64,000 nt of DNA, from NCBI GenBank assembly GCA_008632985.1, contig QPGO01000003.1, positions 62,001-126,000 on the forward strand, written 5' to 3'. Both the position numbers and the translations under genes were made by a program. The DNA is from Psammoneis japonica (Eukaryota). The notes below the pieces were generated by a model. It was not told the origin of the DNA. It was given only the letters and a program-made list of their open reading frames with translations, and ran no database searches. Of this stretch, positions 16,560-62,660 are shown piece by piece. Within the stretch, counting starts at the first letter, position 1, and every line of letters begins with the position of its first letter.

Positions 16560-16571
16560 TTAAAAGGAAAG

Positions 16572-16738
16572 TGCAGCAACTCACTTGCACGCTTCTGATG
16601 TACAGCATCAATGGTTTTGGACATTAGATTAACGTAGCCGTTTGAGAGAGGCTCGCCAGCGTTCGCCAACGCTTGGGCTCCCCTCTCTTCGGTCCACTCA
16701 CTTCTTTGTTTTGACATCAGTTTCAGCTTGAGCTTGCA
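16572..16738 (+). repeat. 5' LTR (167 bp)
   Basis: TG...CA termini. Direct repeat of 21854-22017. Confidence 0.95.
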
Positions 16739-16949
16739 CTGCAATTGCAGTCGGTTGCAAAGAGCTGAATGAGAAACAACGATGCAACTAATGGGCTTGC
16801 GAAACAAGAGAAAAGAACATTGAGAGCGAAGGCAGCGAACTGGGCTTTGGAACAAAAACGGCAAAAGGAGACACGAAAACAATGCGAACAGGATTTGGCG
16901 ATTCGGGTTGCACAGCTCGAGTCGAAGGTAGAGTGCTTGAAGCAGTTTC

Positions 16950-18188
16950 TTGGAGGACCAACTTGGCCTGATGAGCAATCGCGAGAGCCTCAAAGAACCG
17001 TGCATTTTGCATGCTGTGAAATTTGCTCACTCGGATTTGGAACTTGTGAAGTTGACTCAATCGCATGATGATGGCAGCACGCGTACGAAGAAGTGCCCTT
17101 GTTTTGATGGAACTGATGGCATTGAAGCACTGTTGTTCGTGGAAGATCGTTTTCGCAAACTGGCTGCAAAACTTGAACTCACTGCAGGCGAAGAACTGTT
17201 TGACAATTTCGAGGAAGTGTTGGCAGATGCCGCTGAAGATGAATGGTCCAATCTCACCATGGCAATTCCGAATGTGCAGAAGACGGTGGCTCGTTTTGAC
17301 CAAGAATTGGCTCGTTTTTATTTGTCACATTGTGAAACTGAAGCGCGTGACACGATGATTGAATGCTTGCTCTCTCTTAAAAAGCCACATGATGTTGAAG
17401 TGCAGGCACACGCGGATCGAATGGAGACCTCAGTGCGACACATGAACAAGTTGCCGGGAAATGATCCAGTTGTCACTCAGAACCAGAAGAAGAAGATGAT
17501 CTTTGATGGCTTCCCTTTGTCGTGGCACGAGATGCACACAAGAGCAGGACGCACGATTGGAAATGATGCGTTGGCGGAAATTGTCGCGCATGTGAGCACG
17601 GAGAAATCATTTGCAGACAGGAACAAGAAGACTTCGAAGAAGCGCAAAGACGGAGAGTCGAAAGGTGGCGGCTCTGCCAAGAAGAAAGGCAATCGCATTG
17701 ACCCAGAATCTCAATGTCCTTTGCATGCTCACAACCACAAGTGGAAAGATTGCGTCATGAATCCCGACTCCAACAACTGCCGTCCAAGAACTGATCGCGG
17801 AGGTCGCGGACATGGTGGCCGTGGCGGTCGAGGTGGCGGTCGAGGTGGAGGTCGTGGTCATGGCGGAGCGCAAGGTCGTGGTTGGCAAGGCCGTGGCCAT
17901 CAAGGTCATGGTGGTGGCCAAGGAAACTGCGGTGGTCGCGGAAACTGCAACTCTGGCGGCAACAGCGGCGAGCATCATGATGATGGTGGCTCTCACATGC
18001 AATGTCAAAACGACACCCGAACCAATGCAGATGGCGGCGGTTGCGGCAATCCGGCCAGAACGGCTCCTCCCAATGATTGGTCTGCTGAAAGCCATCATCT
18101 TGATTCGACAGGAGGGCCTCGAGAGCATCGAGGTGGAACGGGAAGTTTTCGACCTGGTGGTCGCTTCTCGGGACGCGGTCGACACTGA
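16950..18188 (+). pseudogene. Gypsy gag (mutated)
   Basis: Open 412-aa frame with zinc knuckle CPLHAHNHKWKDC and an RGG-rich tail. Only one Tyr. Confidence 0.85.
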
Positions 18189-18239
18189 CCCAATGAGCTT
18201 GAAGAGCTGTCGTCCGAGTGTGTCGCTCCTGATTCTTGT

Positions 18240-21200
18240 GTGTTTGATGATTGCACTGATTGCATTGATGATTGTCATGCATGTGCTGCTGATTCATTTG
18301 ATGATGACGATTTCGGAAATTGCACCATGAATGACGAAGACGATGTGGGACTTGAGTGCACTGTGCCAACTCCAAAAACAAAACCAATTGAACCATTGAA
18401 CATGGTCCCTGCAACCTTGTTCGCGGCGCGATTCATTCAAGACAAGGAAAGCAAGCGTGTGATGCGGGTGTCATTTGATTCCGGTGGAACCCATTCAATG
18501 ATTCATGCTCGGGTGTTGCGGTTGGAGCGGTTCCAGCATTGGAAGAGACAGGACCGATTCGTGCAAAGTTCAGGACAACAGCAGGAGAATTCGAATCAAC
18601 TCGTCATGCTCGACTGCAGGACTTGGTGCTCCCTGAAATCGACAAGACCAAACATGTTGACGGCATGCATGCGTGTGTGTTTGACTCACCCTGCCAATGT
18701 GACATGATCCTTGGACAGGACTTCTTGGCGAGAGCGGGCATCACATTGGATTTCGAACACGGAATTGTCAAGTGGCTTGGTTCAAGCATTGCGATGAAGC
18801 CGAGGAATCAGCGGACCAGTGTCCAGCAATGGCTCGATGATTTGACTGATGAGCCAGCTGATGATGATGACGTGTGGGATGGCTGCATCCTCGATGCAAA
18901 GCATGAGGAGACGTCCCCTTCTGAAGCGGCTTCAGCTCAGAAGCATCTCACTGCCGAAACAGCAAGAGAAATTGCGTCTCGTGTTGGAGAAACACACCAC
19001 TCTTTTTGATGGCACCCTTGGCAAGCATGCTGGCGAAAAAGTTCACCTTGACATTGACCCTAACGCCGTTCCGCACCATTCTCGAGCGCATGCAGTGCCG
19101 CACAATGATCTCGAGACTTTTGAGCGAGAATTGGATCACTTGGTGGCTCTTGGCGTTCTTGAAGAAGCCGGAACTTCGGAATGGGCTGCAGGTGCCTTTA
19201 TTCAGCCAAAGAAAGATGGTCGAGTGCGGCGGCTCAGCGATTTTCGGGAACTCAACAAAGCCCTCAAGCGCAAGGTTTGTCCCTTGCCGATCATCCAAGA
19301 TGTGTTGCAAAAGAGAGCCGGGTGCAAATTTCTTACAAAGTTGGATCTCTCAATGATGTGCCACACGTTTGAACTGGACGACGATTCCAAAGATCTGACG
19401 ACAATCGTGACACCCTTTGGAAAGTGTCGACACTGCCGTCCAGCAATGGGTTTGAAGCCGGCTCCGGATGTTGTGCAATGCTTGATTGAGAAAACTGTGC
19501 ATGACTTGGACGTTGACGCGTGTGTTGATGATCTCGCTCAATTTGATGACAATTTTGATGTTCACCTTGCTCGTCTCGACAAACTCCTGCAACGTTTGGA
19601 AGAAGCTGGATTTAAAGTGAATCCTTTGAAATGTGAATGGTGTGTGCAGGAAATGGATTTCCTTGGGCATTGGCCAACTCCGACTGGAATTCATCCGTGG
19701 AAGAAGAAAGTGGAAGCCATTCTGCGAATGCAACCTCCGGAAAATGTCAAACAGCTTCGTTCGTTTCTTGGTGCTGTGACATGCTGTCGCAACATGTGGC
19801 CTCGGCGTTCTCACTTGTTGAAACCCTTGACAGATCTCACAGGCAAAGGCTCGTGGACGTGGACAGCAGATTGTCAGGCAGCGTTCGAAGAGATGAAAGC
19901 AGTGCCAATGGCCGAGACGTTGATGGCGCATCCGAATCATGACAAACCCTTCCATGTCTGTGCCGATGCCAGTGATTGCCAAACAGGCACAGTGATTGCA
20001 CAAGACGGAAAACCCATTGCATGCTGGTCTCGAAAGCTGAGCACGGCGCAACAAAACCACTCAACGATCGAAAAAGAACTCTTGGCCATTGTCATGTGCT
20101 TCCGCAAATTCCGAACGATGCTCCTTGGCGGCGACTTGCATGTGTTCACCGGACCACAAGAACCTTGCCTTTCGCACCTTGAATTCACAACGTGCACTCC
20201 GTTGGCGCCTCTTTCTGGAAGACTTTGCCCCTCAATTCCATTGTGTCAAAGGCCGCTTGAATGTCTTGGCTGATTGTTTTTCTGTTTGCCTTGCACGGAT
20301 CCTCCCTCTGAAGGGAAGAGCTTGGCTCCGGGTGAAGGAACTGTTGTTGATTTTGCTCGCTCGATTCGAAGTTGGTCCCGAGTGAGGAACCATCCGAAGT
20401 CGAGGATTTCCGCGATGAGGACTTGGAGCTCGGCGCATGCCGATTCAAGTGTTGTCGCAACATTGAAAATGAAGGCCACTCACACTTCTTCTCTTTCTTT
20501 GTTGATGAGCTGGAACTGTTCGACTCCTTTTTGAATCACCCTGCGATGCAGGAGATGCAAAATCCAATGACGTTACAACGGATTCAAGAGTGCCAGTTCG
20601 AGGACCAACAATTGAACCAGATGCGCATTGCTCACCCTGATCATTTCCTCGTGGAATGTGTGAACAATCGACCGCTTGTGTGTCATCGCATGCGACCAAA
20701 TGATCCTCCAGGACAGTGGAAAATCTGTTTGCCGACTGCGCTCATGCCCAACATTTTATGATGGTGTCATCTCGTCCTTGGCCATGCCGGAAGCCAGCGC
20801 ATGCGTGAAACAATCCAGGCTCATTGTTGTCACCCTGGGTTGCGTCGCATGTGTGATGAACATTCTTGCGCTGATTGCCAATGCAACAAAACTTGGGGTC
20901 CTGGCTGTGGAGAGCTGCCCGAACAAGAAGCTCCATTGACTCCCTGGTCGGAAGTGGCGGTTGACCTCATTGGCCCGTGGAAAATCAAAGCACCAAATGG
21001 AGAGATTGAGTTTCGGGCGTTGACCTGCATTGATCCTGTCTCTGATCTTGTTGAACTGGCGAGAATTGAGAACAAAACTGCTTGACATGTTGCCAACCAA
21101 TTCGAGAACTGCTGGCTTGCACGCCATCCCAGACCGAATCGATGCATCCACAATGACGGCGGCGAGTTCACCGGGTGTGAGTTTCAGATGCTGTTGCAAC

Positions 21201-21730
21201 AAGCCGGAATTGATGATGTGCCGACTGCTTCACACAACCCTCAAGCCAACGCTGTTTGTGGGCGAATGCACCAGACTGTCGGCAATGTGCTGTGCACGCT
21301 CATTGCTTCCAATCCACCTCAAAACCTTCAGGATGCAGCCAGCCTCGTGGACGATGCTTTGGCAACTGCAATGCATGCAACCCGCTGTGCTGTTTCCCGT
21401 TCCTTGCAGATTTCACCAGGTGCCATGGTGTTCGGACGTGACATGATCTTGGATGTCCCAGTGCTGGCGGATTTGTTGATGATTCAAGGCCATCGCCAGA
21501 TGCTGATCAACAACAACTTGCGACGAGCTGATGCCAAGAGAAGATCCTGCGATTGTCAAGTGGGTGATCAAGTTCCAATCAAGCACGTTGAGCCATCCAG
21601 ACTCGAGCCTCGTGCTCATGGTCCTCATCCCATTGTTCAAGTGCGTGCAAATGGCACAGCCTCAGTTCGTCAAGCTCCTCATGTGGTTGAGCGCCTCAAC
21701 ACTTGGCGCCTGATTCCTTTTCGTGGTTGA
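18240..21730 (+). pseudogene. Gypsy pol (protease, RT, RNase H, integrase) with frameshifts, TGA stops and Tyr>Cys/His changes
   Basis: PR: RVSFDSGG...[49 protein letters not shown]...CADC, VAVDLIGPW, HNPQANA. Confidence 0.95.
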
Positions 21731-21853
21731 TCAGGGGGTTTTCTTCCCAACACCTGGGTTTCCTCCTGTTGTTGTCTTTGCTTTTGGTTTTGGTCCTTGG
21801 TTTTTGGCCCTTTGCATGATCCTCCAGTTCTTTCGGATCATGGAAGGGAAGAG

Positions 21854-22017
21854 TGCAGCAACTCACTCACGTGCTTCTGACACATGGCATCAATTTTGGA
21901 CACCAGATTGACGCAGCCGTTTGAGAGAGGCTCGCCAACGTTCGCCAACGCTTGGGCTCCCCTCTCTTCGGTCCACTCACTTCTTTGTTTTGACATCAGT
22001 TTCAGCTTGAGCTTGCA
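21854..22017 (+). repeat. 3' LTR (164 bp)
   Basis: Follows the polypurine tract and is followed by the GAAAG target-site duplication. Confidence 0.95.
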
Positions 22018-22266
22018 GAAAGAAGAGAGTCATCTGTGTTCTGAATTCCACACATGTTGAACATGGAGATTCTTTGTCGCATCCACCGCCTGCAACAGCG
22101 CTGCGCTCCCATGATTTCGTTCCTGCACTTTTGATTGAGCCCACATGTGCCCTGCTGTCGCCATGTTGCAAGCTTGAGAGACTTTTCATTTTTGAGCCCT
22201 TGGCATGCTGCACATGACCTTCGCATGTTACGACGCATTGCGTGCCACATCACAACGCGTAGACTA

Positions 22267-22597: not shown

Positions 22598-22956
22598 TAC
22601 CGTAGAGAACGAAGACCATGTCCGTGACTCAATTATTTTGAGTGCTTTTGTGTTTGTACCGTACTTTATCCTCGTACAGTACCCACGATACTATTTTAGC
22701 CCTTTTTTGGTCACAGACATCTATGACTCTTTCGTACAAAAATGACTTATGAGATCCATACGACCACGACATTTAGGCCCCACAGAATGCCCAAGGATGA
22801 TGCTCAATGCCGCCGAGGTCCGTCAGAGACGCGAATGGTCGAATGGTCTTTAATTTTCTGCGTCGAAAAACAGAAAACACCACTGGGGACATCATTCACC
22901 TCCTACTGTGTCAAGCGAATAGAGAAGATCTTGATATCCTTCCTATTCATTCAACG

Positions 22957-25900
22957 ATGAGGAATGCATTCTTTCGCATGCCGTTGCCGTCTGCAGTAAC
23001 ATTGTTATCATTCATCATCCTACAGGTTGCTCGTTGCCAATCATATTCACGAGACATTGACCCACTCAAGGAAAGGCCGCGAAAAAAGAACAAGGACAAG
23101 TGGCTCCAAGAGAATGCCGGTAGTGCCGAAATCCTTAGAATCGCCGCTGATGATAAAAAGGCACTCCCCGAAGAGTTCTCTCTCTTCGTCAAGTACAAAA
23201 ACAGAAAAGGAAAGTCGTTTGCGAGGAAGGCGTCGAATACTTTCGAGAGACTACCCAAGCATCCCATTGTATCAATCGAAGCAAAGAACAAAGATGCACT
23301 GCGTTCATTGCTGGACGATCCCAATATTGATTTCGTTGAGGTCAATCACAAGATGCATGCGTTGCAACAACTAGACCATTCCACGGTGTCATTGTCTCCC
23401 GAGGAACGAAACCGGCGTCTCATGCAACTTGTCGGGTACGGCATCAAAATGGTTCAGGCGGACCAAATGTGGGACATTCCAAGAACCTCTCATCAAGAGA
23501 AAGACATGACTATTTGTGTTATTGACAGTGGCATGGCATTTGGACATCCTGATCTCCCGACCGAAGGCGTCACTGGGACAAGCACCGGAATGGGCGATTG
23601 GAAGGTCGATGAGTACGGCCACGGCTCACATTGCGTTGGTACGATAGCGGCGCTCGGAAACAACAATCTTGGTATCACTGGTGTGCTTGGAAACCTAACT
23701 GGTTTTAACCTCCATATCAGCAAGGCCTTGAATAAGAGAGGTGATGGCTCAGAATTCCTAGTGTTGCGGGCCCTTGATGGATGCATCACGGCAGGTTCTA
23801 AGATCATAAGTATGAGTATCGGGGGTCCAAGAGTAAGCGATCTCACCCGCGATGCGTTCCAGAAGGCGTACGACGCTGGTGCCTTGCTTTTAGCTGCATC
23901 TGGCAATGCTGGTGATACTGCATACTCTTTTCCAGCCTCTTTCTCTACCGTTATGTCGGTGTCTGCAGTTGGAGAAGACGAAGACATTGCAACTTTTTCC
24001 CAGTACAATGACCAAGTGGAGATTGCTGCTCCTGGCGTCCGTATTTTGTCTACTGTCCCTGTATCCGGTGGACGATACGGCATTGGTTCCTGGAGTGGTG
24101 CGTGTATTGAAAGCCCAATGGACCAACGTTGTACACCTACACTAACTCCTTCTTTTTATTCTTCCCTCCAGGTACAAGCATGGCAACACCTTTTGTAGCT
24201 GGCATTGCAGCCATGGTTTGGTCTCATTTTGAAGAATGTACTAATCACCAAATCAGGAACGTTCTGATCCGAACCGCAAGAGACTTGGGAGAATCGGGTT
24301 GCGACCACGACACGGGTTTCGGTATTGTGCAAGCAAAGGCGGCCTATGATCTTTTGAAACGTGAAGGATGCACAGCAGGTGGTGAGTCTCCAAAGCCACT
24401 TTCAAAAGGAGCCGTTGGTGGTTGCCAGCAAGACCCTTTCTATACCCAGCCTCCCACACCATCTCCTACAGAGTTTCCATGTGACGAAAAGGTGTTTATG
24501 CTCAATCTGACGACAGATGAGTGGGGTGAGGAGACCTCTTGGACTCTCATGAATTCGACAAAGGGTGTCATCGAAACGGGGTCGCGGTATAAGGCGAATA
24601 GAACGTACGCCACGTGGCTCTGTTTGCCCCTTGATAGCTACGTCTTTACCATAGAAGACACAGAGGGTGATGGAATCTGTTGCGACTACGGAAACGGTAG
24701 CTACTCGCTGTACTTTGATGGTGAGCTTGAGAAAGCTGGTGGCGAATTCGGAAATATGGAAGTAGTCAAGTTTGGTATTAAAAGATCATCTGGTGACGTT
24801 TCATCCGAAGATGGCTCATCTCCCAACACTCCGATACGAACTTCATCACCTTCAAGCATACCGACAAGCCCTTTAAACACGGAATCTGGGAAACGACCGC
24901 TAAGGGTACCGTGTATCGACGATCAAGCTTGGGTATTCAAGACGAAGAAGGGGCTCGAGAAGCGCTGTAGATATCTGAAATCCAAATCCGAGTCGAGGTG
25001 CAAGCTAGTTGGAAAAAGAGCAAACGGGGATCAAGCATCCGGCTTCGAAGCTTGTCCATCTACCTGTGGGTCCTGTCCCGAACCCGATACGACTAGCACT
25101 GTCACGCTGTCGCCGACTTTGTCGCTTTCTCAAAGTCGATCGTCGCTCACTCCATCTCCAACAAGTCAGCTTACCTCGCTACCAACTAAGCAGCCAACAA
25201 GCAACCCAACTTCACGGCCAACGACGACCCCAACGTTATCCCCTACATCTCAGCCAACTTATTCACCGACGAGCGCAACATTGTCTCCTACAAGTTGGCC
25301 TACGTTGTCCCCTACGAGTGGGCCTACGTTGCCCCCAACAAGGCCTCCGACTCCCTCTCCAACAATCCAGCCTACGTTGGAGGCAACCAATCCCCCAACC
25401 AACAAGCCCACCTCATCGCCTTCCCGAGCGCCTCCTATTGCCGCTCCCACCGGCACCGATTCAAATGCAGCTCGCAGTAGCACCATTAAAAATGAATCGG
25501 AATGCCACGACGATATGGATTGGGTCTATACCGTAAAGGGCAACCCAAAGACCTGCAAATATGTTGCGAAGGCACCTAACAAGCGGTGTCAGTCTTATGG
25601 GGTGAATGGCAATGGCGACTCAGTATCTGGCGTCGTTGCTTGTCCTTTGTCGTGTGGGGTATGTAGCGTCAGCGCGTCGCAAACGACTCCGGCTCCGTCG
25701 CCATCGCCTATCGCAACACCCTCGTCAACAGAAGGTCCTCCCTGTGAGGATGACAAAGACTGGCACGCTAGCATGTTTGGCCATCGGATGGATTGCAAAT
25801 ATCTGGAGACGAAATCCTCTTCCTGTTGGTTACCTGGCAGGAACGCCAAAGGAGAAACGCAGTCGGGTTACGATGCTTGTCCCGTCGCATGTGACACTTG

Positions 25901-26810
25901 CCCGGTGTCGACCATCATACCGTCAACACTGTGCAATGTTGGATACAAAGCAGGCATTCACTTGTGTGATGAAGATGAGGCAGAAATGGAATGCAACGTG
26001 TACGTTGAGCTTGATGGGGACAGTTGCGATGATTTTTGTGCACAGCAAGGAGGCACTTGCATCTCGGCGTCTGGAGTGGCTGGTCCGGGTGCTACCTGTA
26101 GAACCGCTCATCCGAGTAGATGCAGCTATCCGAGTTCCCGCAATGTTTGCAAATGCTCATTGAGCGACAGCAACGTTCAGTCAGCAGCGCCTCCGCAAGT
26201 GGCGTCATCCTGTAATGATCTCAATGGCGATAGTCTGCTCATGTGCGAAGAGAGTGAATCACAGTGTTCTGCTTACGTAAGATTGCACGGCAAAAGTTGT
26301 AAGGACTTTTGTGAGCGGCAAGGGGCGTCCTGCGTATCGGCAGTAGAAAGTCGTGGCCACACTGCGAAATGCAAAACCTCGTGGCCCGAAGATTGCAGTG
26401 ACAGGGCGTACACGAGCATTTGCACTTGCGAGCTGGGTGGCGGTGGCAGCACCAGTAGAGGCACACCACCACCACCTGCGGCAGCCACACAAAGTTTCCA
26501 AAGAGACGACGGCATGGACATCCGCTTGTGCGAGGTCAAGGAATCAGAAGGCACAGCGAACGTGCAACTAGATGGCCACAGCTGCAATGATTTCTGTAGA
26601 CGCCGAGGTGCGATCTGCATTGCCGCGTTCGAAAGCAGAAGCGAGCGCAGCTGTTCCAAATCTGGCACGTCATTCTGCAGCCGGGAACATTCAAGCGACA
26701 GAACATGCACGTGCTCCTTTGACACTGATCAAGTTACGCCAGCCACACAACCAACAGGGAGCATTAGTTTTTGGAGCGGTCATACAAGCAGATACCATTT
26801 TCCCCACTAA
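22957..26810 (+). CDS. Secreted subtilisin-like serine protease (S8) with multidomain Cys-rich C-terminal extension
   Basis: VIDSG, HGSHCVGTI, ASGN, and SG|TSMATP across intron 24098-24171. Signal peptide and pro-domain. Then a TTDEWGEETSW...GDGICC domain, three ShK-like ACPxxCxxC modules, PT repeats and three copies of a ~10-Cys module. Confidence 0.93.
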
Positions 26811-27441
26811 ATTTTTATTAAATTCCACCGTCAGAAGGCAACTTTCTTATGCAGGTAACCAACTGATCTGTTGTGGTAAATGGAGCACAACAGCAAGTAG
26901 CAGACGCCTTCGAGAGAGCGCAAATAAAAAGAATGAAAATATTCTTTGCCAAGATAGCTCCAGCATCTGTCATGGCCCAGTCTTCAAGCAGAATTAAAGC
27001 ACCAAGAAGCGCTCAGCAATCACGCTCTCCTTTTCTGTTCCGACGCGGCAATGACGACACGTCGTTCTTTGTAATGGTAGCTACCAACGTATTTCAAATA
27101 ATAACACTGAACATAATCAGCCGTGCCTGTGAATTCAACAGAAAGTAGCGCATTCGATGAACGATCGCTTGCATTGCTCAACAACAGGTGCCGGTAATGA
27201 TTGTCTTTTATTCAGAAGAAAATACAATGCCGAGAGTATTTTCCCGCCAAATAATGTGTACTGTACAAACTTATATACAAGTCTGAATAACATTCAAATT
27301 TGAAATACCGGAGGGAAGTTTCGAAGAGATTCACAAACCCCATCGAAACGACCGCGGCGGTCATGATGTGATTGTCACGGGACGTGTACAGGATGCCGTG
27401 TCGAAGCACACAATCCATTCGCCATCATCATCATCACGACA

Positions 27442-28218
27442 ATGATAAGTTCCTTGCGGTGTTTGCCATTATTGCTGCTGTTCGTCTCGTCGTGCCATGC
27501 ACAGCAAGGTGAAACAAGCAGCATTACGGTTTGTTCCAACACGGCCGTCACGGTGACTCAATTGCAAGTCACGTGCGATTCTCCCGGAACGTTTTATTAC
27601 GGAAGTGGTGGGTACCGAAATAGCAAATATTGCAACGTGGGAGACAAGGCCCATGTTGTTGTATATTTTGATATAAACCAACAACAAGATGTGATGTTTG
27701 TGACCTTGACGTGTTTTGCGACAAACCAAAAGGTTCAAATCTATCAAAAAGCAGACGTGTGTAGTGTCAGCAACCATGCAACATCAAGTTTGAATGGAAG
27801 CAGCAACTGTCCCGCGGCTGGATCGTACAAGCTGGAAACGCACTTTTATTTTCAAGGCGGTGACAATGCCAGAAACGATAAAGGATATTCTTCCTACAGC
27901 AACGGCAGTGATTCATTGACAGAGAATACGTACTTTGTACCAACCGTCATGGTTGGATTCTCGTCAGTGCTCGACAATCGTGATGATGAATTTGATTTGG
28001 GTGGTGCCAATCTCGACAAGTGTGCAGGAAACAGTCGACAAGAAATTGTTGCATCGTACCCTGCTAGTAGTAATCAAGAAGCACTCGTCAACTTTGCCGT
28101 GTGCATGGCAATCTTGCTGTCAATCTTGTGTCTGTTGGTATTTGGTATTTGGTTTGTCTTTGTCAAAACAACAAGTAGCTCCGAGGCGGGCTATTTGGAA
28201 GAGGACTTGATGGCATGA
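27442..28218 (+). CDS. Single-pass membrane protein with Cys-containing ectodomain, function unknown
   Basis: 258-aa ORF with a signal peptide, a C-terminal TM helix and a short acidic tail. Confidence 0.8.
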   Translation: MISSLRCLPLLLLFVSSCHAQQGETSSITVCSNTAVTVTQLQVTCDSPGTFYYGSGGYRNSKYCNVGDKAHVVVYFDINQQQDVMFVTLTCFATNQKVQIYQKADVCSVSNHATSSLNGSSNCPAAGSYKLETHFYFQGGDNARNDKGYSSYSNGSDSLTENTYFVPTVMVGFSSVLDNRDDEFDLGGANLDKCAGNSRQEIVASYPASSNQEALVNFAVCMAILLSILCLLVFGIWFVFVKTTSSSEAGYLEEDLMA

Positions 28219-28523
28219 CGACGAATCGAGCCGAAAGGCACAATTAATGGTAAGAGCGGGGAGGTTGGTTCTCTTTTTGAAAATGGGGCGATAAATGATT
28301 TTCGATATATTGCTTTGTTGCTCATTGGTTTTAGAAGTGCTGTCTCTAGACGTAAAGTAGCACCGGTAGTAACTTTGCTTCAAGATCCGACTGATTCTAA
28401 ATACAGTAGTTTGAAATGTAAATCATTCCATCGTATCGTTCAAAACATGTTGTATCCGTCGCGAACAACAAACTGTAGTTATACGCCGTTACAATCTAAA
28501 CGTGCACATTTCTTTCTCTCTCT

Positions 28524-30879: not shown

Positions 30880-31200
30880 AACCTCTCACCCAAACAAGGT
30901 TGGCCCCATCTCTGCTGACATTTGCTCCAAAAAAGAAACGCAATTTGTTGTGCTTCCCAAATTTAAATTCCACAAATCAGCGTTCCCCGAATGTGCATTT
31001 CGGTCGGACCAAATCGGCACTTTGGTCAGACGAAATTTGTTGACAAATTTGATGCTCGTGACCAAAGTGATTTTGTTTCCCAAAAATGTCATTTTGGCAG
31101 GAGGGGGGGGTGAAATGCTTTTGTCGACCAAATTGCCAGACCAAACAAATCAATTTGGTTAACCAAATTGACGTTTGCAAAATCTCGACCAAATTCATTT
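30880..31200. repeat. Cluster of GACCAAA(T) motifs in both orientations, probably transposon subterminal repeats
   Basis: Repeated gaccaaat / atttggt / tttggtc. Confidence 0.5.
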
Positions 31201-49700: not shown

Positions 49701-52100
49701 GGAAAGGGAATTGCATGACATTAAATCGGTGCCCCCTGGTTCACATGGGGCAGAGAAGGGAGTCTTGGACGCTGAACAGGTGATTCTGCAGTGATGAAGT
49801 GATCGTTTCACCACTGCCACACAGCTGTGCCAGACTTGAAATTGTGCAGTGTCCAAACACATCTTGGAAATTCCAATGACATTGGCTTGGATTTCCATGG
49901 CCACTTGTGCACAATCATTAAAGTCCCTGCCTTGGTGGTCAAAGGAACACCCATTGGCATTGAACGCGTGCAATCTTGTGTGTCTGGGCGAGGGCAATTT
50001 AGGAAGCAATGGATCACCAACTGGGTCATTGGAGGACAATCTGGAGCAGTTGATGGTGGCAGAGGGAGGGGCACAATTGCGTCCTGACAACAGCTGGGTC
50101 CACTGCTGAGCAGCGGGATCAACTGCATGCAAAGGGGTGTCACCCCTCATGTGCAAGCCATGCTTCCTCAAAGGAAGGCTGCAGGAAGACTTTTGTCTGC
50201 GTCATGGACAAGTGGCAGGTGAGACGACTGGGCCTGACCCATGGAAAATCCAAATTGTCCACTTCAGTCATCGAAGTGTCCTCAGGAGGATTGTGTGAGG
50301 AAGAACCTGCTGGAGCCGACGCAGCTGGCTTCTTCTGATGGGGGGAGACTGGGACATCTGGAATGACAGAGGCAAACATCTCTTGCATCACAGTCTGCAA
50401 TTGAGAAGCGAGAGTGGTTTGCAACTGGGAAGCAACTGCTTGCTGCAACTGAGTCGACAGAGCCAAAATGGATTCTTGATGTTTCCTCTCTAATTCTGCA
50501 AAACGTTTTTCTTGATCTTGCTGGTTTTGGTGAACAAGTTGTTGCAGTTCAGCGATTTCCACAGATTGGTTCGACACATCCAAGATGGGAATGGCACCTG
50601 GGATGACTGCCCCTGGCGTGTTCTTCAAAACTTGGGAATGTGCAGGAAAACCCGCATGCACTCCAATGCTCTTTGGTGCTGGAGGTCCTTTGGAATCTGA
50701 CGCCTGTGGAGGAGCAATGGAAGCCACTGGAGAAATGTCTGAAATGTCAAGAGACGCCCAACTTTGAATGTTTGTGGATGAGATGGATTGAACCGCATCG
50801 GACACATTGTCGTTGATGCCGGGGATCACAGGCCCAGGTTGACTGTCCGGAATTCCTGCCTCAACTGCAATGGCTTGGAACCACTCGGGGAGATGTTTGG
50901 CAATGCAGTGTTTGGCTTGATGAAAACAATCCTCATTGACAAGAATGTTGTGCCACTGGACCGCAGATGTTTTCTTCGATGGGACGACGTCTGGCACTCC
51001 AGTCACCTTTTTAATTGTGTCGGTCAGACAGAACAAATGGGCTTCTGTGCAGTGAAGCAATGGGATGACATGAGTCTTGGCACTTGTCTTGCATTGTTTG
51101 CGGATTGCTTTGTCAAAAGCTTCCGGTTGAGAGTGACGCCAGCAGGATGGGACTGTCACAAGTGGATGTTCTTTCAGAACCTCCAACAAGGCGTGGATCA
51201 CATCTTTTGCGTGGTCGCGGGGTGTTTCGATGGCACAAAAGTTGGTTCAAAGAGATGGATCTTTGGGAGATGAAGCCAACTGGACTGTCAACCTGAAGGG
51301 TGGCTTCAAGCGGCTGCGTTGAGGAAGAAGGGTCATCAACAATTTTTGAGCCACATCCTCTGGATGATGCTTTGGTGGCAGGTCGACAAGAAGAGCCACG
51401 CGAGCAAGGTCAATGATGGTCTCGTCCCAATGGTGGCGGCGCATGCAGATGCCATTGTCTTTCAATGCTTTGTTGATGAAAGGAGTGTTCCTGATGTCAG
51501 CAAGAGACAAAGATGTTTGGATGCGGTGTGCAACAACAAACGTTGGGGAGCGATGGCACGAACCTCCAATGCGATGCACAACAAAGTGTTGAGAATGAGC
51601 AAGTCCAGCAGTCCACTTGATGACATTGATTTCGGGGATTTTGAGACTGCGGTTTGACAGAATCGTCATCTGATTCATCAAAGGGTCTTGGGAGGCTTTC
51701 TGTTGGAGGGTGTTGAGGATGGCAGCATGACCCATGGCTGAGACCGTGGATGCATTGTTGTCAGATGAGGTCAATTTGAAACGGATGGCAATCTCCTTGA
51801 GCTTGGAGCTTTTGGGTTTTCCAGATCCAGTTCTGGTGGGAGCAGGTGGAGCATCATCCATGACAGGCATCCATGACAGGGGGGGATCAGGCTGAGGATC
51901 ACCAGCATGGCCAACCTGCGGTGGCGGAGGGTTCATCATGGTGATGAGTTTTTGGTGCAAATTTTGCACAGAATTCCACATAGAAACTGTCAACAGGTGC
52001 TTGCATGGAAAAGTGTCACCATCATCATCAGGTGGTGCCATGTGCTGAAACAGTTGGCAAAAGCACACCCATTGCAGCAAACTGTTGTGCATGTGCATGC
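43770..52100 (-). mobile_element. Non-LTR retrotransposon (LINE) with ORF1 and APE-RT-RNase H-CCHC ORF2, Ambal-like, mutated
   Basis: APE LHAFNANG...LDCVLAT...SSDHRA. RT KIHHLRVIHICEADF, DCTSCFDR, GTGQG, GCADD. RNase H SDGS...AEACG...WAKGHQD...NVC. Knuckle CLHCEHPMEDWDHVLQC. ORF1 relic at ~50140-52098. Clade assignment is from domain architecture only. Confidence 0.9.
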
Positions 52101-54423
52101 ATCACACAGTGAACAAAACCATCAACATGCTGAGGCACACATGCTTTGTTGATCAAGGAAACAAGCCCTCAATGGATGTTGCACCCCTCAAAGCCCACAA
52201 CATTTTTCTGGTGAAGTTGTGACAGCTGCTGCTCAGCCTGTGTTTTCTGTTTCTTCTCTCATCTTCCTCTTCCTCCTCTGAGCCCTCCTCTGAGCCCTCC
52301 TCTGGGCCCTCTTCTGAGCTGACTTCTTTGAGTCATCCTCTTCCTTGTGGTCTTCTGGGAGAGCCGCTGCTGCTGACAAGATCAAGAACTTTTGTTGTTG
52401 TCATTTGCAACAAGCTCTCTGAAGAGCACTTCTGCTGCTCAACTTCTCCTCCAAGCTCTGGCACCACAGTGGGTTTGGCAAGAGCACCAGTGCACACCAG
52501 ATGCAGAGCAGCTGGCACTCCTTTTTGACAAGCCACTGCAGTGGTGCGAATGCACTGAGGTCAGGCATGCTTGGTTTGTGCAAGCAAGTTTGGCTGGTCT
52601 TGCCCGTCAGCTGCAAAACAAGTGCTTGGGAGGACAGCCTGAAAAACTGTCAGCTGTCATCTCTCTGGCTGCCAAATCTGGGCAGTTGTGTCCAGGCCAA
52701 GCATTTCAAAGAACAGCTCTAAAAGCAGTTTGATGACATTGTCTTCTGGCACTGCTTTGCAGCACTTTCTGCAGAACTTGAAAAGTGCTGCCAACAATGA
52801 CAGAGATTTTGTGGCAGCCACACTCCACACACAGGAGGGGTTTCGCACATGTGTTTTGTGCACACCATGGCGGTGACACACTGACAACTCTGTCTGATGT
52901 CCATTTGCCTGTGCATGGCAAAAGACAATCAGCTGCCACACAACAGATGCTGTGCCCCCAGCAGAGGCTGCCATTCAAAGATGGCAGCAACGTGCAGCAT
53001 GTGTTGATCCCACAGGCTGCTCTGTGACCAGCGTCAGTTGCCGTGCCACCTCACTGCCATCTCCACATCTGGCAGCAGCAACTTTTCATGACAAAAATCC
53101 CAATGATCAATGACTCGCACATCCACACATGTGCAGACACACAAAACCAGGCCTGTGGGGAGCATTGACAACTTGTCTTTCTTTGTGGGTGTGTGCCATT
53201 GCATGCTGCATTGTGTGTGCACACGTGCCGGTGCGGCCCTGCTGCACTGTGCTGCCACCAGCATGGCCACTGCACACCGGTGACATGGATGACCATCACA
53301 TTTGATGGCTCACGCCATTTTTGGGGCTGCAGCGAGAGGTGCGCGGACACTCTTTTTTTCCCAATTTGTTGCCATGACAGCGCACATCACACAAGCGCAC
53401 TCATTGTTCGACATGTTTTTTCCAATGTGACTGTTTTGTGTGCAATTCATGTCAATTTCTCTTCACACAAAGTTGAGTGCATTTTTCAACATGCCATGCC
53501 AGCAATCCCAATTTTGCATCACTTTCGATCTCTCCTGAAAAACCACTCCACGCACCCCGTCGCAGGGAACCCATCAATTTTTTAGGATGTCCCCACAACC
53601 TCCAATGTCCTCTCAATGATCATTCTGCAAATCCGAGCAATTCATTTGCACCAAACAACCCATGTCATTCCAAAATCACAGGGACACACTTTCAAATGCG
53701 GGCAGACTGACTGCCGGGCCGACTGTCCGACATGAAAAAGTCCGCAATCACCAGCCACTGAGTGGTCAATGAAAAATGGCTCTGCACCTGCAATGTGCAA
53801 AGGTTAGACCTCCTGGTGGGGTGTGTGGAGAGGGGAGCCCACCCCTGGTCTTTTTTGTTGACTCAGATGCTGTCTGCAGAGCTCTTTCCCAGGTCAGGTG
53901 CAACAAAAGCTGGAGACTTCAAGGAGCAGAGAGAGGGGCTCAGCACCGTCTGTCTCCACTCGTGCTTGCAGATGCAGCACGCCCCCTGAATCTGCCTTGC
54001 ACCACAGCACCCTTGGCTGTTCTGTGTCAATGCTGTGTCCTCCGTTTTGCATGATGGCAGGCTGCTTTTGAGCGCACCAAGTCAGAGAGCTTGACAGAGG
54101 CTCTCAAAAGGAGCGCGCAGCACTTTTGCGTCACGGGTCATTTTCGAAAGATTCCCATTGATGTTGTACCGCCTGTAAAACACTGTCACACATCCAAAGG
54201 ACATAATTTTATGACTTTGATAAAAGGGCATAAAAAATTGAGTCATCGATGAAACAAAAAAATGTCTCGAGGAAGGATAAGGTTACCGGTTACCGGGCGG
54301 CAGGTACAGTAATTGTAACCTTACCGAGGTGCCGAAATCTCATCTCTTTGATGAGTCCCTGAACAGAGTGTCTCAAACCTGAACGTGAACTTTGTGTATG
54401 GGAAGAGGAAGAAGCGCTATGCA

Positions 54424-57293: not shown

Positions 57294-57408
57294 CCAATTT
57301 TCTTGCTCTTGCTTACACTGGGCTGTTTCTTGACCTTGATGGAGTGTGTTGTTGTTGCGCCAATCGTTGCCATTGTTTTTGTTTTGCACTGTGCATGCTG
57401 GAAAACAC
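57294..57408 (-). pseudogene. Duplicated 5' fragment of the HEAT-repeat gene
   Basis: Encodes MATIGATTTHSIKVKKQPSVSKSKKIG versus MATIGATTTHSIKVKKQPGVSKSTKIG at 30168-30247. Confidence 0.9.
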
Positions 57409-60400
57409 GATTGCAGCAGGCACTTTTCCGTGACATCTGCAGGAGCTTGCCCCCACAATGACACCAGGCGCACCTGCTTGGATCCCTTTCATCTCCGGCA
57501 GATTCCATCATCACAGGCAACATGCACAAATCACCCATCACCACTTCACATGCTGCCTCTGCTTGGCCAGACATTTTGAGCATTTGTGCACAGACGCAGC
57601 TGGGCACACCATGGTTTGCACCACGTGACAGATGCCATCCATTGCAGCAGGCTGCAGTGCCTGCAATGCAACAACATCGAAGAAAGGAAGTGAGCCCCAT
57701 GTTTTTGGCAAAAAAAGGTGCAACTGTGCCAGCACTTGCATCCCACAGGACTCATGCACAGGGACCTTGTCAAAATGACTTTCTTGTCATTGCTTTCTCA
57801 TCTCATTTTCTGTGCAAATCTCCAAGCGCAAAACCACACACAGAAATGTTCTTTTGTCTCCCCGGCTCCCTCTGTGCACTCCAGCTGTGACAAAGAAAAC
57901 CTGTGTGGGCAAGTTTTGGCCACGGGCTGGAACATGTCCATGACATTTTAGATGCAGCAGCAATTTGCACCGCCCGCCCCCCAAGGTCATTGTGGAGAGG
58001 TCCAAACACGCCATTTTGGGATCTCATTTGAAAAACCTGTTTTCGTGCACAAAGTGAAATTTCAATTCCCTTGTTTTCACATTTTCGTGAGCTTTTCATG
58101 AGCCAAAGCTTGTGACATGCCACCACCCTCAATCTCTGTGATGTTTTGAAACTCTAAAAATTCAGTGCTGTGCTGCGTGGGCATTTTGCTCAAAACAAGC
58201 AAATTTTGAGCAACAATGTTTCGAAAAAACACCTGCTGCCTTTGTGGCCATTGCAGCATTCCACTTTAATTGCACTTTGGTGAAAAAACAAAAAATGCCA
58301 TTTTTTGCTCAAACATGTCATGTTTGAGCAAATGGGATTCAATGTTTGAGCAATTGCTTGCTCAAACATGCTGCTCAAAGACGTGTTTGATGGATGACTC
58401 AAACTTGTGCAAGCTTGAGCAGTTGCTCAGCCAAACATGCACTTTGAGCCCAAAACAGTGGCTGCCACCACAAAGCCACTGTGCAGCACCAGCCTGCTGC
58501 ACAGTGCCAGCTGTGTGCACTGTGAGTGCTGCTTTCACTGCGTGCAGGTGTCAGCAGTGCCAAACAAGTGCAATGGAGACAAAGTGCTTGCAGCCATCAA
58601 CAACAAACAACACAATCGCAGCCATTGTGCTGTGATGAAATGAGCAATGATTCTTCAACAACAACACCTTCACAAAACCCAACAATCTGACAAAAACATG
58701 GACACAAACTTGTGCACAAAATGTCAAAAATTCATGCGGAACAGGCTTGTTGGGGGGGAACAACAAGAAACAACATTGTGTGGCAAAGTGCGCCAAAGCA
58801 CTGACATGCACTTTGACATTAATGTCCATTGTTCTGAGTCAAAAATGTTGGCCGGTGTGGCAAATGGGCCTTCAGTGCTGGCATTGTCTTTGTTCCTGTC
58901 ATGCCAGCACAGATTTTTTGTGCGCAGAGGGCCTCAATGCACTGGGTGCATGTTTGAGCAATTGCTTTGAACTTGCCAAATTTGAGCAAATGAGGGACTT
59001 AAGTTTGAGCAATTGCTCAAACTTTCAGTTGCAAAAGCCAAGACTAGAACTCTCAGTCAGGACCATCAGTTTTTGCTTGGCATGGTGTTCGATCACATCC
59101 ATTGTGTTTGCGCACACACACGTGTTTGAGCCGTTTTGGTTTTTGTTCACTCACATCTGCATTTCTGAGGATTTTTTCATTTTTGCATGAACAAGACTGT
59201 GCACGCATGGCCAGAATCACTTGCTTTCCTTGGCAGCTCTCGTCGAACAGTGTGGGAAAAACTGCGTGACAACAACACTCAAGTGGGCGGTCGCTTCTCA
59301 AGCAAATCTTCCTTGTGCAGCTCAAGACTTTGTGAGCTGCATGAGGGAAGTTTGTGAGCTGCACAACTTGACTTTTCATCAGCCCTGCCCTCCCTTGCAC
59401 AGCTTGTGACTTTGTCAGCTGTGTGAGGGAAGTTTGTGAGCTGCACAATGAAATGTTTTGTGTGCCACACAATGACACTTGGTCAATTGCTTGGCATGAG
59501 TTATTGTCCACAACAGCAAATTTGCACACACAATGCCCAGATGATGGACATGCCTCCCCTCACAAGAAAAACACCATGACAGCAGCAAGCAACAGCTGAT
59601 GCCAGATTCTGCTGCCAAACCTTTTCCCCCACCAACAACACCAGTGCGCACTGCATGCCATGTTTTGCTCTGACAAATGCATTTTTCTGTCATTCCTGCT
59701 CAAATCCCACAACTTTGACAGCTGGCGCTGCTTCACTGTCAAACTTTTCCTGCCAACAATGCTTGGAAAAGCATGCGTGAGAAAAGAGAGGTGAGAGAAA
59801 GTCCAAAAATGGACAAACACTCCTTCTGAGATTTTGCTGACATCCACACTCTTTTGTCACAACTGTCATGCTTCAATTTGTTTGTTCTCAACAGGTTGAA
59901 GAGTGCAGAAACCACTGCACAGCTGGTTGAGACTCTGTGCAATGCCAAGTGTTGGGCAAAGTTGGTTGGGTTGGTGAGCACAGCAGAGTGAGGCAGGCTG
60001 GAGGATGACAGCAAGGGGAGCAAAAGGGGGTCAGAGGAAGGCACCTCAAGGGCATGGAGCATTTGACGTGGCAATTTGCAATCTGCCACTTTTGGAAAAT
60101 CTGGGAACAACTGGCAGATGAGGTTGCCATCATCTCCAAACATTTGAGTCTGAGGACTGCCTGGGTTGCTGACTGCAGCATCACCCAGGCAGCTTTTTTC
60201 TGCAAAGATGTTCACACAACCTGGGGTCCCAATCCCCCCACCTCTGAAAACATTGAGACAGCCAATGAGAGCCAAGGGGTTGCTCCCTGGTGAGGCATTG
60301 ATTGATGCTTCCAAGGAAGGGAGTGTCTTTCAACACCACCATGGTGGTTGGTGCTGCTGTTGTGCATTTGTTCCAAGACTTCAATGTCCAGTTCACTTTG

Positions 60401-62660
60401 GCATGTTGACTCTCACTTCACTAAAGTCAAGTTAATCAAGACACTCTCCCCACACCAGGCAGGTGAAAAATTGCCTGTTCCTCTCCTCATTCATTCCAGC
60501 TCTAGCCCAGCATGTTGTTCACACCGGCAGGGCCAAACTGATGCTTGGTCTGTCACAGACTTTAATTTGCATTGGCGCTCTCTGACTTGATGAAAAGAGT
60601 CAAGACAAAGAAAACACATGGTTGAACTCAGAGTGCTCAAATGACTCCTTGACATTGCACTCAATGAGAGTGCCACTGCCGCAGAGCTTTTTCAGTTGGC
60701 GTGCATGTTTGCTGTTTTCTGGGCCTTCTCAGTTGCCATTTCAGGCAACACCCTTTGTCACTTGTTGCACAAGAAACCCCTGGATTGTCCAGGTGGGGTG
60801 ACATGAACATCACACAATGATTGCAAGGATTTGTGTCAAAAAGCTGGTGTGATGCCAGCCAAAGACAAGAAGCATGTTGCCATGATCACATCTTGGTCTG
60901 TGTGACTGTGTGACATTTTTGTGCAACGTGCAGTCAGTGGTTTGTTTTTTATGGTGTCTTTGGTTCTTGGCTGCTGGTTTGCACCCGAGCTGTCTTCAAG
61001 TTTGGCATGTCCAGGAATCATGGGCAAAATGGGGTGGGAACTGCAAGACATTCCCTTGTGTGTCATCAAGCAACACAAGCATCCAAATGTTGGTTGTGAT
61101 GTGCCACTGTCAGCAAGCATCTTGTGGAGCATCAACCATTCATGTGTTGTGTGAAATGCAGTTTTCCTGGTTGTGTGCTGTCTCTCATGCTCTTGTCTCT
61201 TGCGTGAACTCCAGTTGCTTGTGCTGACAACTCATCATTCTGTCTTGTGCACATTGGGCACTCCCTTTGTGTTGTGCTGTTGCACCTTTCAACTTGTGCA
61301 CAGCTTGTGCTTTGATTTGCAAATTTCAAGTGTGTTCCTTGTCATCACCAGTGCACACACCAAGGCAATGAATGTTGCAGCTCCAAAAGAGTTGTCACAA
61401 ATGCCCAAGCCTGGAGTTTTTTTTTGTGTGTGTCATGGTGTGTTGGTCTTGTGGGACTCAGTTTTGTGTCATTGTCACAAGGTCATTGTTGCAGTTCATG
61501 AAGCTGATTTGCCACTGGCACTGATGGTGTCCACAAGCTTGATTGCACTGAAGCTTTTGGCTTTTAACTGGGCATGTGTTGCACTCAGCCATGCTGTCAA
61601 CAATGTCAAAAATTCCAGACCATGCCACCACCCATGTTTGGTTCTCAACCACAACAATGGCAAACATGCAACAGATGACTTGGCTCCTTTGCCATGTCAG
61701 CTTCAGCTTCAATCCAAGAGCTGAGCCCTGTTTCTTCAAAGCTGAGAGAGGAGCCCAAGTTTTGTTGTTCGTTGATGGCAATCTCATCATTTTTTGCCAT
61801 TGTTTCTTTCATGAGCACATCACAATGGCTCCTCAGTGATGATTTTTTACATCTTTTGTTGACCTGCTTGTCTGTCAAACACAGAGGATTCTCACACAAA
61901 AATGCCCCGCCACCCACAGCACGGGCACTCACTCTCTTTGCACATTTTCTCTTGGCAGCAGCGCTGCTCCTGTGCCAACACAGACATCTCTGTCAAGCCA
62001 TGAGCAGCACTTTTTCACAGCAAAAGTGTGCCCATCCACCATGCCATGAAATGACGCCACTCCTCCCCCCTTCTTTCTGACAAAGTGGCTGAGAGTTTGC
62101 AGTGTGTGAGCTCTGCTGCTCTGTCAACTGCAGCAGTGTGGCTGCAGCTGCTCTGTTTTTGCACATCCTCTGCCAATTGTTTGTGTTGACATTTGCAACA
62201 ATTCAGTGCATCCTCCTTTGCACTCACTCAGATGCCCCTGTTGGCAGCACACCAGCAACCCATCTGGCACTCCTGCTGCCCTGTGTTGAGCGAGATGGTT
62301 TGTTGACCGCTGCACAACATGACCCTGCCAACAGCACTGCTCCAAAACAGCAACAGCATGCCATGTGAAATTCTTGACTCTGCAGGCAGGCTGCTCTGTT
62401 GCTGGCATCAGCCCACAGCATGTGTCACGGAGCCTCCTGCTGGCTGGCAGCATCCACCCCCACCAGTCATCTTTTGCAAAAAGAAACATCCCAAATTGTC
62501 CATGACCGACACACGCAGTGTCCTCACAAGGGGAAAAATTCTGAAGTGTTGCCCACAAAGTTTGAGCTGCAGACGTTGCTGTGGCAATGTCAATGCACTT
62601 GTGTGGATGGATGAACCTGGGTGCATGGAGAGGGGATCCCACCCCTGATCCCGATGGCTC
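57320..62660. repeat. Second degraded TpA/CpG-depleted repeat block, partly homologous to 30.5-54.1 kb
   Basis: TpA nearly absent. Contains TTTGAGCAA/TTGCTCAAA motif clusters (58190-59020), an inverted match of ~60270-60335 to ~42455-42515, and the 60530-61760 repeat. Confidence 0.85.
60530..61760 (+). repeat. Dispersed repeat, copy 2 (homologous to ~33340-34570)
   Basis: Collinear direct match. Differences are dominated by transitions. Confidence 0.88.

Follow-up and report, generated by a model that had tools for sequence, protein, structure and literature searches.

Within a 64,000-nucleotide stretch of the genome of the diatom Psammoneis japonica (contig QPGO01000003.1, positions 62,001 to 126,000; hereafter the window, with positions counted from its first letter), three blocks of mobile-element DNA, named B1, B2 and B3, have lost nearly all their TpA dinucleotides. 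With a probability of roughly three in four, the loss is due to a process that acts at the DNA level on integrated mobile elements and changes the A:T of 5′-TpA-3′ to G:C, leaving TG or CA. The process runs until ∼95–97% of the TpA is gone and reaches no more than a few hundred bases past the edges of an element, and its signature is confined to mobile-element blocks. A hypermutation of TpA to TpG/CpA is described in a preprint on the chlorarachniophyte Bigelowiella natans (10.64898/2026.01.13.699255), and the process in the diatom is probably of the same kind.

The blocks were first seen in a 1-kb scan of the window, and their edges were set from the gaps between successive TpA (Table 1). The TA density of host DNA, 0.0396 per bp, served as the reference for chance calculations. 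At this density 191 TpA are expected at 17401–22228, where six are seen; the corresponding figures are 938 expected and 62 seen in B2, and 212 and 14 in B3. The longest TA-free run covers 1683 bp and has a chance probability of ∼1e-29. At the edges of B2 and B3 the sequence passes from normal to TpA-free inside one or two TpA spacings, and the host genes between the blocks have TA observed/expected ratios (O/E) of 0.4–0.8. TpC and ApA are not depleted: O/E of TC is 1.07, 1.00 and 0.84 in B1, B2 and B3 vs 1.09 in the rest of the window, and that of AA is 1.18–1.28 in the blocks vs 1.17. The GC content of the blocks is 0.48–0.51. An earlier reading of this DNA, made from the letters alone (the sequence-only reading), had described three sharply bounded blocks almost free of TpA; the recomputed TpA O/E of 0.03–0.04 against 0.59 bears this out, and its hand counts were recovered (15 TpA in 16572–22200, 63 in 30500–54100 and eight in 24541–24660). 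Its restriction of the signature to mobile elements likewise stands, the blocks consisting of a Gypsy element, a non-LTR retrotransposon (LINE; LTR, long terminal repeat) and old repeats.

A point absent from that reading concerns CpG, which is strongly depleted in B2 and B3 and not in B1. The CpG loss in B2 and B3 is a second, separate layer of decay, of the type caused by 5-methylcytosine (5mC). Since the CG O/E of B1 is still 0.83, CpG decay cannot account for the TpA loss. In B1 ∼95% of the TpA is gone at this CpG level; TpA is erased far more rapidly than CpG decays in one and the same stretch. The residual TpA is equal in young and old blocks, but this is not used to argue for an ongoing rather than a one-off process, since such an argument depends on the order in which the old copies were changed.

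The converted letters are found in sequencing reads. The reads come from one public sample with three runs; the contigs of one of these runs (X1; longest contig 315 kb) are built from exact 31-letter words. Three X1 records span the left edge and the start of B2, at 26902–31062 (depth 60, five differing letters), 31175–32942 (depth 63, six differing letters) and 32920–33999 (depth 60.5, no differing letter). The flank records have depths of 48–61, and the first 3.5 kb of B2 lies at the same depth as host genes. Contigs that match the window at single-copy depth imply that the reads hold neither a mixture of TG and CA nor TA at these sites. X1 thus excludes a strand-mixed or long-read artefact.

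Comparison with related elements indicates that the depletion reflects mutation of ancestral TA and not native composition. The reverse transcriptase/RNase H (RT/RH) frame of the Gypsy element in B1 (475 aa) contains no Tyr. In a MAFFT alignment with 60 homologues, all 15 conserved-Tyr columns carry Cys (nine) or His (six) in this frame, and other conserved residues are kept (Arg in 14/14 columns, Gly in 16/17, Leu in 35/39). The RT of the LINE in B2 keeps Tyr in none of eight conserved columns, which read Cys (four), His (two), Trp (one) and Phe (one). The sequence-only reading had noted the Tyr-free frame, had assigned Cys or His to the Tyr positions of Gypsy elements, and had concluded that conserved and catalytic motifs are destroyed. 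These claims survive the alignments: the motifs that it quoted (CVDD, FGKCRHC, RKVCPLP, FLGHWPTP, VCADASDCQ and QQNHST) are all present in the frame at 18846–20273, its protease motif RVSFDSG lies at nt 18465, and conserved Tyr is lost in 15/15 columns in the Gypsy element and 8/8 in the LINE. Its proposal that A:T changes to G:C at TpA on both strands agrees with the joint occurrence of Cys and His in the Tyr columns and with the TG/CA swaps between copies described below.

Relatives of the element have normal TpA. A metagenome scan with Tyr-poor RT proteins yielded 77 related Gypsy loci, which do not include the contigs that encode the Tyr-poor proteins P0131, P0219 and P0151. TpA O/E in these loci is 0.42–0.99, and in none of the 77 does any 1-kb window fall below 0.3. 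Loci L031 and L039 have CpG O/E of 0.11 and 0.27, yet TpA O/E of 0.76 and 0.81; the loss of TpA is hence no side effect of decaying CpG. Together with L053 and L075 they form a group with CpG O/E of 0.11–0.36 and TpA O/E of 0.42–0.81, which is ordinary methylation decay. In a wider survey of 20 conserved Tyr columns in the query and 241 homologues (242 RT sequences in all), Cys or His predominates at these columns only in the query and four others, the median fraction being 0. The four are P0131 and P0243 (12/17 columns), P0219 (6/10) and P0151 (7/15), from JGI/IMG and ENA records, and are 51–58% identical to the window RT at the protein level. They suggest that the same signature exists in other element families elsewhere.

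The process acts after integration, on chromosomal DNA. LTRs are identical at insertion, and those of B1 now differ at converted sites, so conversion followed integration. All 14 differences in 163 aligned bases of the LTR pair are transitions, with no transversion; at three sites one LTR has TG and its partner CA, and at four the 5′ LTR still has TA while the 3′ LTR has been converted to TG or CA. The divergence outside TA sites amounts to 4/163. The two copies of a repeat common to B2 and B3 are distinguished by 46 adjacent TG/CA swaps over 1206 aligned bases, and a control pair of host tandem paralogues by two over 1330 bases; the 46 swaps point to independent conversion after the copies split. 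The paralogous open reading frames (ORFs) of the control, at 12575–13969 and 14576–15922 on the minus strand, encode 464 and 448 aa, have 77–79% DNA identity and match no Pfam family. Further copies in X1 extend the comparison. Sites 16758 and 22236 read CA in the window and TA in all other X1 copies, site 16517 reads TG in the window and TA in most other copies by depth, and one further site that distinguishes copies from the window is a TG/CA swap. Over 20 kb the X1 copies differ by 606 transitions and 210 transversions. The four types of transition are about equally frequent, as TG/CA swaps would predict.

Survival of TpA depends on the flanking bases (R, purine; Y, pyrimidine). Relative to host density it is 0.002 for RTAY (one site vs 321 in host DNA), 0.041 for RTAR/YTAY, 0.248 for YTAR and ∼0.5 for TTAA. 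YTAR makes up 55 of the 86 residual TpA, where host DNA has 176 among 1082 (P = 7e-21), and regeneration from TG or CA would give just 23% YTAR. The three survival values of RTAY, RTAR/YTAY and YTAR would fit an independent attack on each strand, ∼4 times faster in the favoured context. Among Tyr codons in YTAY context, seven became TG and three CA; among purine-preceded Tyr codons the outcome is six TG and five CA. The YTAY outcome, in these small numbers, is consistent with a changed A that is followed by a pyrimidine (T-A-Y). Along the B2/B3 repeat pair the 46 swaps fall into 26 runs, where shuffling gives 24.0 ± 3.4, and split evenly, 24:22. The choice of TG or CA is random and independent at neighbouring sites, and there is no strand coordination.

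What marks a sequence for conversion is more likely to be silencing or foreignness than sequence duplication. The sequence-only reading had proposed a repeat-targeted system, a reverse form of fungal repeat-induced point mutation (RIP), and this part is not borne out. X1 shows the start of B2 to be single-copy, yet it is converted, and two kinds of repeated DNA escape: the host tandem paralogues (1.3 kb, 79% identical) and a multi-copy ∼380-bp repeat adjoining B1. The multi-copy B1 is converted, and the main target in B. natans is, according to the preprint, single-copy (10.64898/2026.01.13.699255). Taken together, these targeting facts seem to fit silenced foreign or mobile DNA better than repeats. 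A function in genome defence may be supposed.

The closest precedent comes from mutation-accumulation lines of B. natans, in which two integrated viral regions accumulate mutations at ∼1000 times the rate of the remaining genome; 230 of the 231 de novo mutations in the viral inserts, called from Illumina data, are A>G or T>C and, according to the authors, all lie on TpA (10.64898/2026.01.13.699255). As reported in the same preprint, the larger viral region is a transcriptionally silent single copy, only some of the lines show the process, and its rate is ∼1e-7 to 1e-6 per site per generation in vegetative growth. The authors also describe 124 clusters of TpA-poor, CpA+TpG-rich windows in B. 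natans, and TpA-depleted coding sequences enriched in RT, endonuclease-RT and DDE domains. Mettrop et al. suggest that an ADAT2-like protein deaminates the adenine, and liken the process to RIP (10.64898/2026.01.13.699255). The statement in the sequence-only reading that no such system had been described is thus overtaken by this 2026 bioRxiv preprint. Within the literature searched (subscription journals not covered), the signature is described solely there and is not unprecedented; no report of TpA>TpG/CpA hypermutation in diatoms was found in that literature. The main text of the preprint mentions neither diatoms nor the terms ‘TTAA’ and ‘trinucleotide’, and its supplements could hold context data.

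To judge from the preprint, the two cases share an exclusive change of A:T to G:C at TpA to give TG or CA, the restriction to foreign or selfish DNA in an otherwise normal genome, the action on integrated DNA, and the long-term TpA depletion with a gain of CpA+TpG. They differ in the host, a chlorarachniophyte (rhizarian) there and a diatom (stramenopile) here; in the extent, with a Rho of 0.45 in the insert from a nucleocytoplasmic large DNA virus and a saturated O/E of 0.03–0.04 in the diatom; and in the material, viral inserts with measured rates in B. natans and LTR and LINE retrotransposons known from comparisons only in P. japonica. Relative to the main text of the preprint, the present analysis adds the tetranucleotide context, the independence of sites, the timing from the LTR pair and the behaviour at the edges. 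If the B. natans rates are carried over, the half-life of TpA would be, roughly, of the order of 1e5 generations, which would explain saturation in the young B1.

Better known systems resemble the process in part. With RIP it shares dense dinucleotide-specific transitions in integrated mobile DNA on both strands, sharp edges, possible spill-over and irreversibility. The direction is opposite: RIP changes C:G to T:A, mainly at CpA, creates TpA and lowers GC, so that, as the sequence-only reading had argued, it cannot explain the blocks. RIP also needs duplication and a premeiotic stage, and duplication dependence is not seen here. Furthermore, RIP events are strand-coordinated, and no runs appear among the 46 swaps. 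Diatom DNMT4 enzymes are possibly related to the fungal RIP protein RID (PMC9998398). Deamination of 5mC, which is present in B2 and B3, likewise turns a palindromic dinucleotide into TG and CA, one site at a time and on both strands alike. Its target is CpG, and the near-complete (∼95%) TpA loss in B1 at CG O/E 0.83 puts it aside, again in line with the sequence-only reading.

Deaminases of the ADAR and APOBEC families are host enzymes that mutate selfish elements. They act on RNA or pre-integration cDNA and on one strand; here the change is post-integration, on both strands, restricted to TpA and near-complete. The B. natans preprint notes that the A edited by ADAR is preferably preceded by U (10.64898/2026.01.13.699255). 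In dinoflagellates, 5-hydroxymethyluracil (5hmU) takes the place of T with a preference for TA and TC sites; it is concentrated on repeats and keeps transposons silent (PMC11572971). This is, as far as that source goes, a TpA-centred mark on repeats in the same supergroup with a role in transposon silencing; it is an epigenetic base with no reported decay of TpA to TpG/CpA, and TpC is unaffected in the blocks. A further parallel is with the tRNA adenosine deaminases TadA and ADAT2/3. Their target, A34, as far as is known, always follows U33, and the natural loop of bacterial TadA, U-A-C-G, has the T-A-Y context. Evolved TadA deaminates DNA and is the basis of adenine base editors; natural members act on tRNA. 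In most ADAT2/3 substrates a purine follows A34, a mismatch with T-A-Y. Stramenopile-specific deaminase-SAM-Tudor proteins have also been described (PMC3239186). The literature alone points to ADAT2/3, deaminase-SAM-Tudor and DNMT4 as candidate gene families.

As to the chemistry, we see about an even chance that a host enzyme deaminates adenine in T-A-Y of silenced foreign or mobile chromatin, on either strand. Such an activity would turn adenine into hypoxanthine at T-A-Y sites in silenced mobile or foreign DNA, attacking either strand site by site. Replication would then read inosine as G and fix the change. The outcome would be an irreversible inactivation of the element, with all Tyr codons and other TA-containing codons lost. 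A change that starts at thymine is unlikely but deserves attention: a TET/JBP-type dioxygenase would turn T into 5hmU (and further into 5-formyluracil) at TpA of silenced repeats, and mispairing with G or faulty repair would lead to T>C, so that TpA would be lost in the way in which 5mC leads to the loss of CpG. The dinoflagellate mark with its TA/TC preference, its location on repeats and its silencing of transposons (PMC11572971) offers a model for it, the per-site, strand-symmetric and run-free pattern resembles the decay of a symmetric duplex mark, and duplex data do not separate A>G from T>C. TpC, a second site of the dinoflagellate mark, is undepleted in the blocks (TC O/E 1.07, 1.00 and 0.84 vs 1.09). 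Moreover, ∼95% TpA loss at CpG O/E 0.83 would need a mark far more mutagenic than 5hmU is known to be. It is very improbable that TpA was gradually removed by error-prone repair, in which heterochromatin is excised and resynthesized again and again by a polymerase of the eta type. The hotspot of polymerase eta is WA (W, A or T) with A>G, as known from somatic hypermutation, and the changes observed are almost purely transitions; ApA, which the same hotspot includes, is undepleted (AA O/E 1.18–1.28 vs 1.17), the spectrum is too clean (no transversion in the LTR pair) and the loss too complete.

There is only a very slim chance that transcripts were hyperedited from A to I by an ADAR- or ADAT-like enzyme and that the edited copies were then reverse-transcribed and put back into the genome. 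The two elements to which a type could be assigned are retrotransposons, the sense-strand gain in the Gypsy pol is almost all TG, and U before the edited A is preferred in ADAR and fungal editing. Against this, the LTRs of one and the same element differ at converted sites (three swaps and four TA sites), where editing before integration would have made them identical, sense-strand T>C is common, with His at 6/15 Tyr columns, and conversion runs 211 bp past the target-site duplication; in B. natans, moreover, the preprint describes the signature as arising de novo in integrated DNA-virus sequence. An error of base-calling or assembly at a modified base, the true DNA being TA, is scarcely credible. 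Region-specific base modification can mislead some long-read base-callers, and the platforms of the assembly and of X1 are not on record. However, the X1 contigs match B2 with 0–6 differences per 1–4 kb at a depth of ∼60, the frames are broken beyond TA sites as well, and in B. natans, according to the preprint, Illumina sequencing yielded the same changes. Equally negligible is a native composition or selection, by which TpA-avoiding families, or a transfer from a TpA-poor donor, would have brought the low TpA with them. In principle the many X1 copies within 85% identity could stem from one TpA-free master. This does not agree with the loss of Tyr at 15/15 and 8/8 conserved columns in two unrelated RTs, with the LTR swaps and the independent conversion of old copies, with the TA found in other copies at sites that read CA or TG in the window, or with 77 relatives of normal TpA.

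Several points weigh against a DNA-level conversion of TpA in integrated mobile elements, or against its assignment to adenine. The evidence throughout is inference from comparisons, with no de novo event observed. X1, its platform not being on record, may be the window's own assembly data and is not an independent confirmation. The ∼380-bp repeat (16190–16572) beside B1 is multi-copy and unconverted; at least 25 X1 contigs cover positions 16428 and 16517. TpA being palindromic, A>G on one strand is T>C on the other, and adenine and thymine chemistry are indistinguishable. The strand assignment of T-A-Y rests on ten sites. Finally, on the sense strand of the Gypsy pol, compared with 30 relatives, TG is raised by 41 per kb and CA is lower by 3 per kb. 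Despite this TG excess, the Gypsy Tyr codons split into nine TG and six CA, and the excess is absent from the LINE and the other blocks. The asymmetry can be native composition or mutational bias, which are not separable, and no transcription or replication model is claimed for it.

If one natural DNA adenine deaminase, directed to chromatin and specific for T-A-Y, were common to diatoms and chlorarachniophytes, it would represent an ancient genome-immunity system of the stramenopile–alveolate–rhizarian (SAR) lineage. Such a natural adenine base editor would attack either strand of duplex DNA, one site at a time, and would chronically remove TpA from silenced transposons and integrated viruses. 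This idea is tentative. Were it true, it would parallel RIP and 5mC decay in the opposite direction, and the four Tyr-poor RTs would be further instances. The presence of the B. natans process in diatoms as well would imply that permanent disarming of mobile and viral DNA by this route is widespread among eukaryotes, and that genome composition is shaped by a GC-raising, dinucleotide-specific mutational force. Converted elements lose their Pfam hits, and the content of transposons and endogenous viruses is underestimated in such genomes. Genetically tractable diatoms exist, and knock-outs in them could lead to the enzyme. If it proves to be a naturally occurring DNA adenine deaminase, it would matter for base-editing technology; DNA adenine deaminases are regarded in the base-editing literature as laboratory-evolved. 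Any mechanism is constrained by the erasure of RTAY, the resistance of TTAA, the lack of strand coordination, completion of the conversion before CpG decay and sharp edges with an apparent spill-over of ∼200 bp.

Table 1. Blocks of TpA loss, mobile elements and comparison sequences in the window (TSD, target-site duplication; PR, protease; INT, integrase; AP, apurinic/apyrimidinic)
Feature	Position	Strand	Details
Block B1	16636-22229		5594 bp; TpA 11; O/E: TpA 0.03, CG 0.83, TG 1.59, CA 1.36
Block B2	30506-54167		23662 bp; TpA 62; O/E: TpA 0.04, CG 0.27, TG 1.80, CA 1.82; composite; CpG O/E per kb 0.05 to 0.55
Block B3	57315-62661		5347 bp; TpA 14; O/E: TpA 0.04, CG 0.19, TG 1.91, CA 1.92; old repeat; diverged pieces common with B2
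Rest of window			29397 bp; TpA 1179; O/E: TpA 0.59, CG 0.99, TG 1.18, CA 1.19
B1, complete Ty3/Gypsy LTR retrotransposon	16572-22017	+	gag, PR, RT, RNase H, INT; 15 TpA in 5.4 kb
TSD GAAAG	16567-16571 and 22018-22022		5 bp; read in the sequence
5′ LTR of B1	16572-16738	+	167 bp; 4 TpA remain, all within the first 65 bp
gag-like region	17094-17804	+	by blastx
RT/RNase H frame	18846-20273	+	475 aa, 0 Tyr; Pfam RVT_1, RT_RNaseH, RT_RNaseH_2
Integrase-like region	20351-21724	+	by blastx
3′ LTR of B1	21854-22017	+	164 bp; fully converted, 0 TpA
TpA-free flank past the 3′ TSD	22018-22228		211 bp; 0 TpA, P ∼2e-4 at host density
LINE (non-LTR retrotransposon) in B2	43639-52101	-	near full-length; ORF2 matches AP-endonuclease and RT homologues, 50048 to 43960
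B3 repeat copy	60533-61759	+	partner in B2 at 33347-34562; 77% identical
Host tandem paralogues (control)	12579-13917 and 14577-15930	-	79% identical, normal TpA
Unconverted multi-copy repeat	16190-16572		directly upstream of the Gypsy element; 22 TpA in 383 bp; X1 bin depth 7836

B1 has the order gag-PR-RT-RH-INT, direct LTRs with the ends TG..CA and a target-site duplication, as expected of a Ty3/Gypsy element. Its RT has hundreds of homologues at 50–63% identity (best E = 1e-171), and eight of the nine for which an organism is named come from diatoms. The Gypsy family is multi-copy, the summed X1 depth across B1 being 25–50 times that of the flanks, a figure that is not a copy number. The depleted zone is offset relative to the element: along B1 there are four TpA in the 5′ LTR (counted on 16573–16741), five in the next 660 bp, six in 17401–21854 and none in the 3′ LTR. 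The TpA-free flank that follows can be explained in two ways, as spill-over or as an older fragment that was itself converted. One X1 contig at 22205–22236 (depth 49) has three differences in 32 bp (CG for CA, CA for CG and TA for CA) and may represent a second haplotype with another conversion state at the edge of B1.

In B2, CpG O/E ranges widely from kb to kb, which indicates that its pieces differ in age. The LINE frame at 46556–47842 gave 1367 phmmer hits (best E = 3e-50), and blastx is collinear across residues 13–1543. Three of the four homologues scanned carry Exo_endo_phos above the Pfam cut-off, and two of the four carry RVT_1 below it; none of the LINE ORFs of the window itself reaches the Pfam thresholds. 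Pfam scans covered 21 ORFs and then 142 block ORFs, and among the latter only the Gypsy RT/RH frame was recognized; B2 outside the LINE and the whole of B3 matched no Pfam family. Hits to Gamma-thionin, GSAP-16 and KfrA_N lay below the curated cut-offs and were treated as chance. When the window was compared by blastx with the Gypsy and LINE homologues, nothing was found beyond B1 and 43.9–50.0 kb. Two 92-bp stretches with 89% identity, at 30168–30259 and 57294–57385, lie at or just outside the left edges of B2 and B3 and could be a common element terminus or a duplicated host piece. TAA and TAG are nearly absent in the blocks (seen at 43639–52101), and TGA is the sole interrupter of frames. 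Dead elements consequently show deceptively long ORFs, up to 437 aa, that could be mis-called genes.

The unconverted repeat upstream of B1, which may be a SINE, a MITE or a solo LTR, is TA-rich and occurs in X1 in internal-deletion variants, with joints 16215>16295, 16215>16429 and 16346>16480. A (GT)n microsatellite lies at 16020–16036, and repeats at 16009–16045 were skipped in read placement. Downstream of B1, a subtilase gene (Peptidase_S8; 22801–26810, plus strand) is split over two overlapping frames, 22801–24198 and 24111–26810, which implies an intron or a frameshift. Contigs of a second run of the public sample (X2) at 23556–24422 differ from the window by 22–61 letters, which suggests a diverged allele or a paralogue. 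An ORF at 28524–29762 on the minus strand, ∼0.7 kb from the left edge of B2, encodes HEAT repeats of the EF3/GCN1 type and no ABC domains; its only strong homologue, P0397 (725 aa), is also HEAT-only. For an ORF of the M64-peptidase type, an Atlas search gave only weak bacterial clusters.

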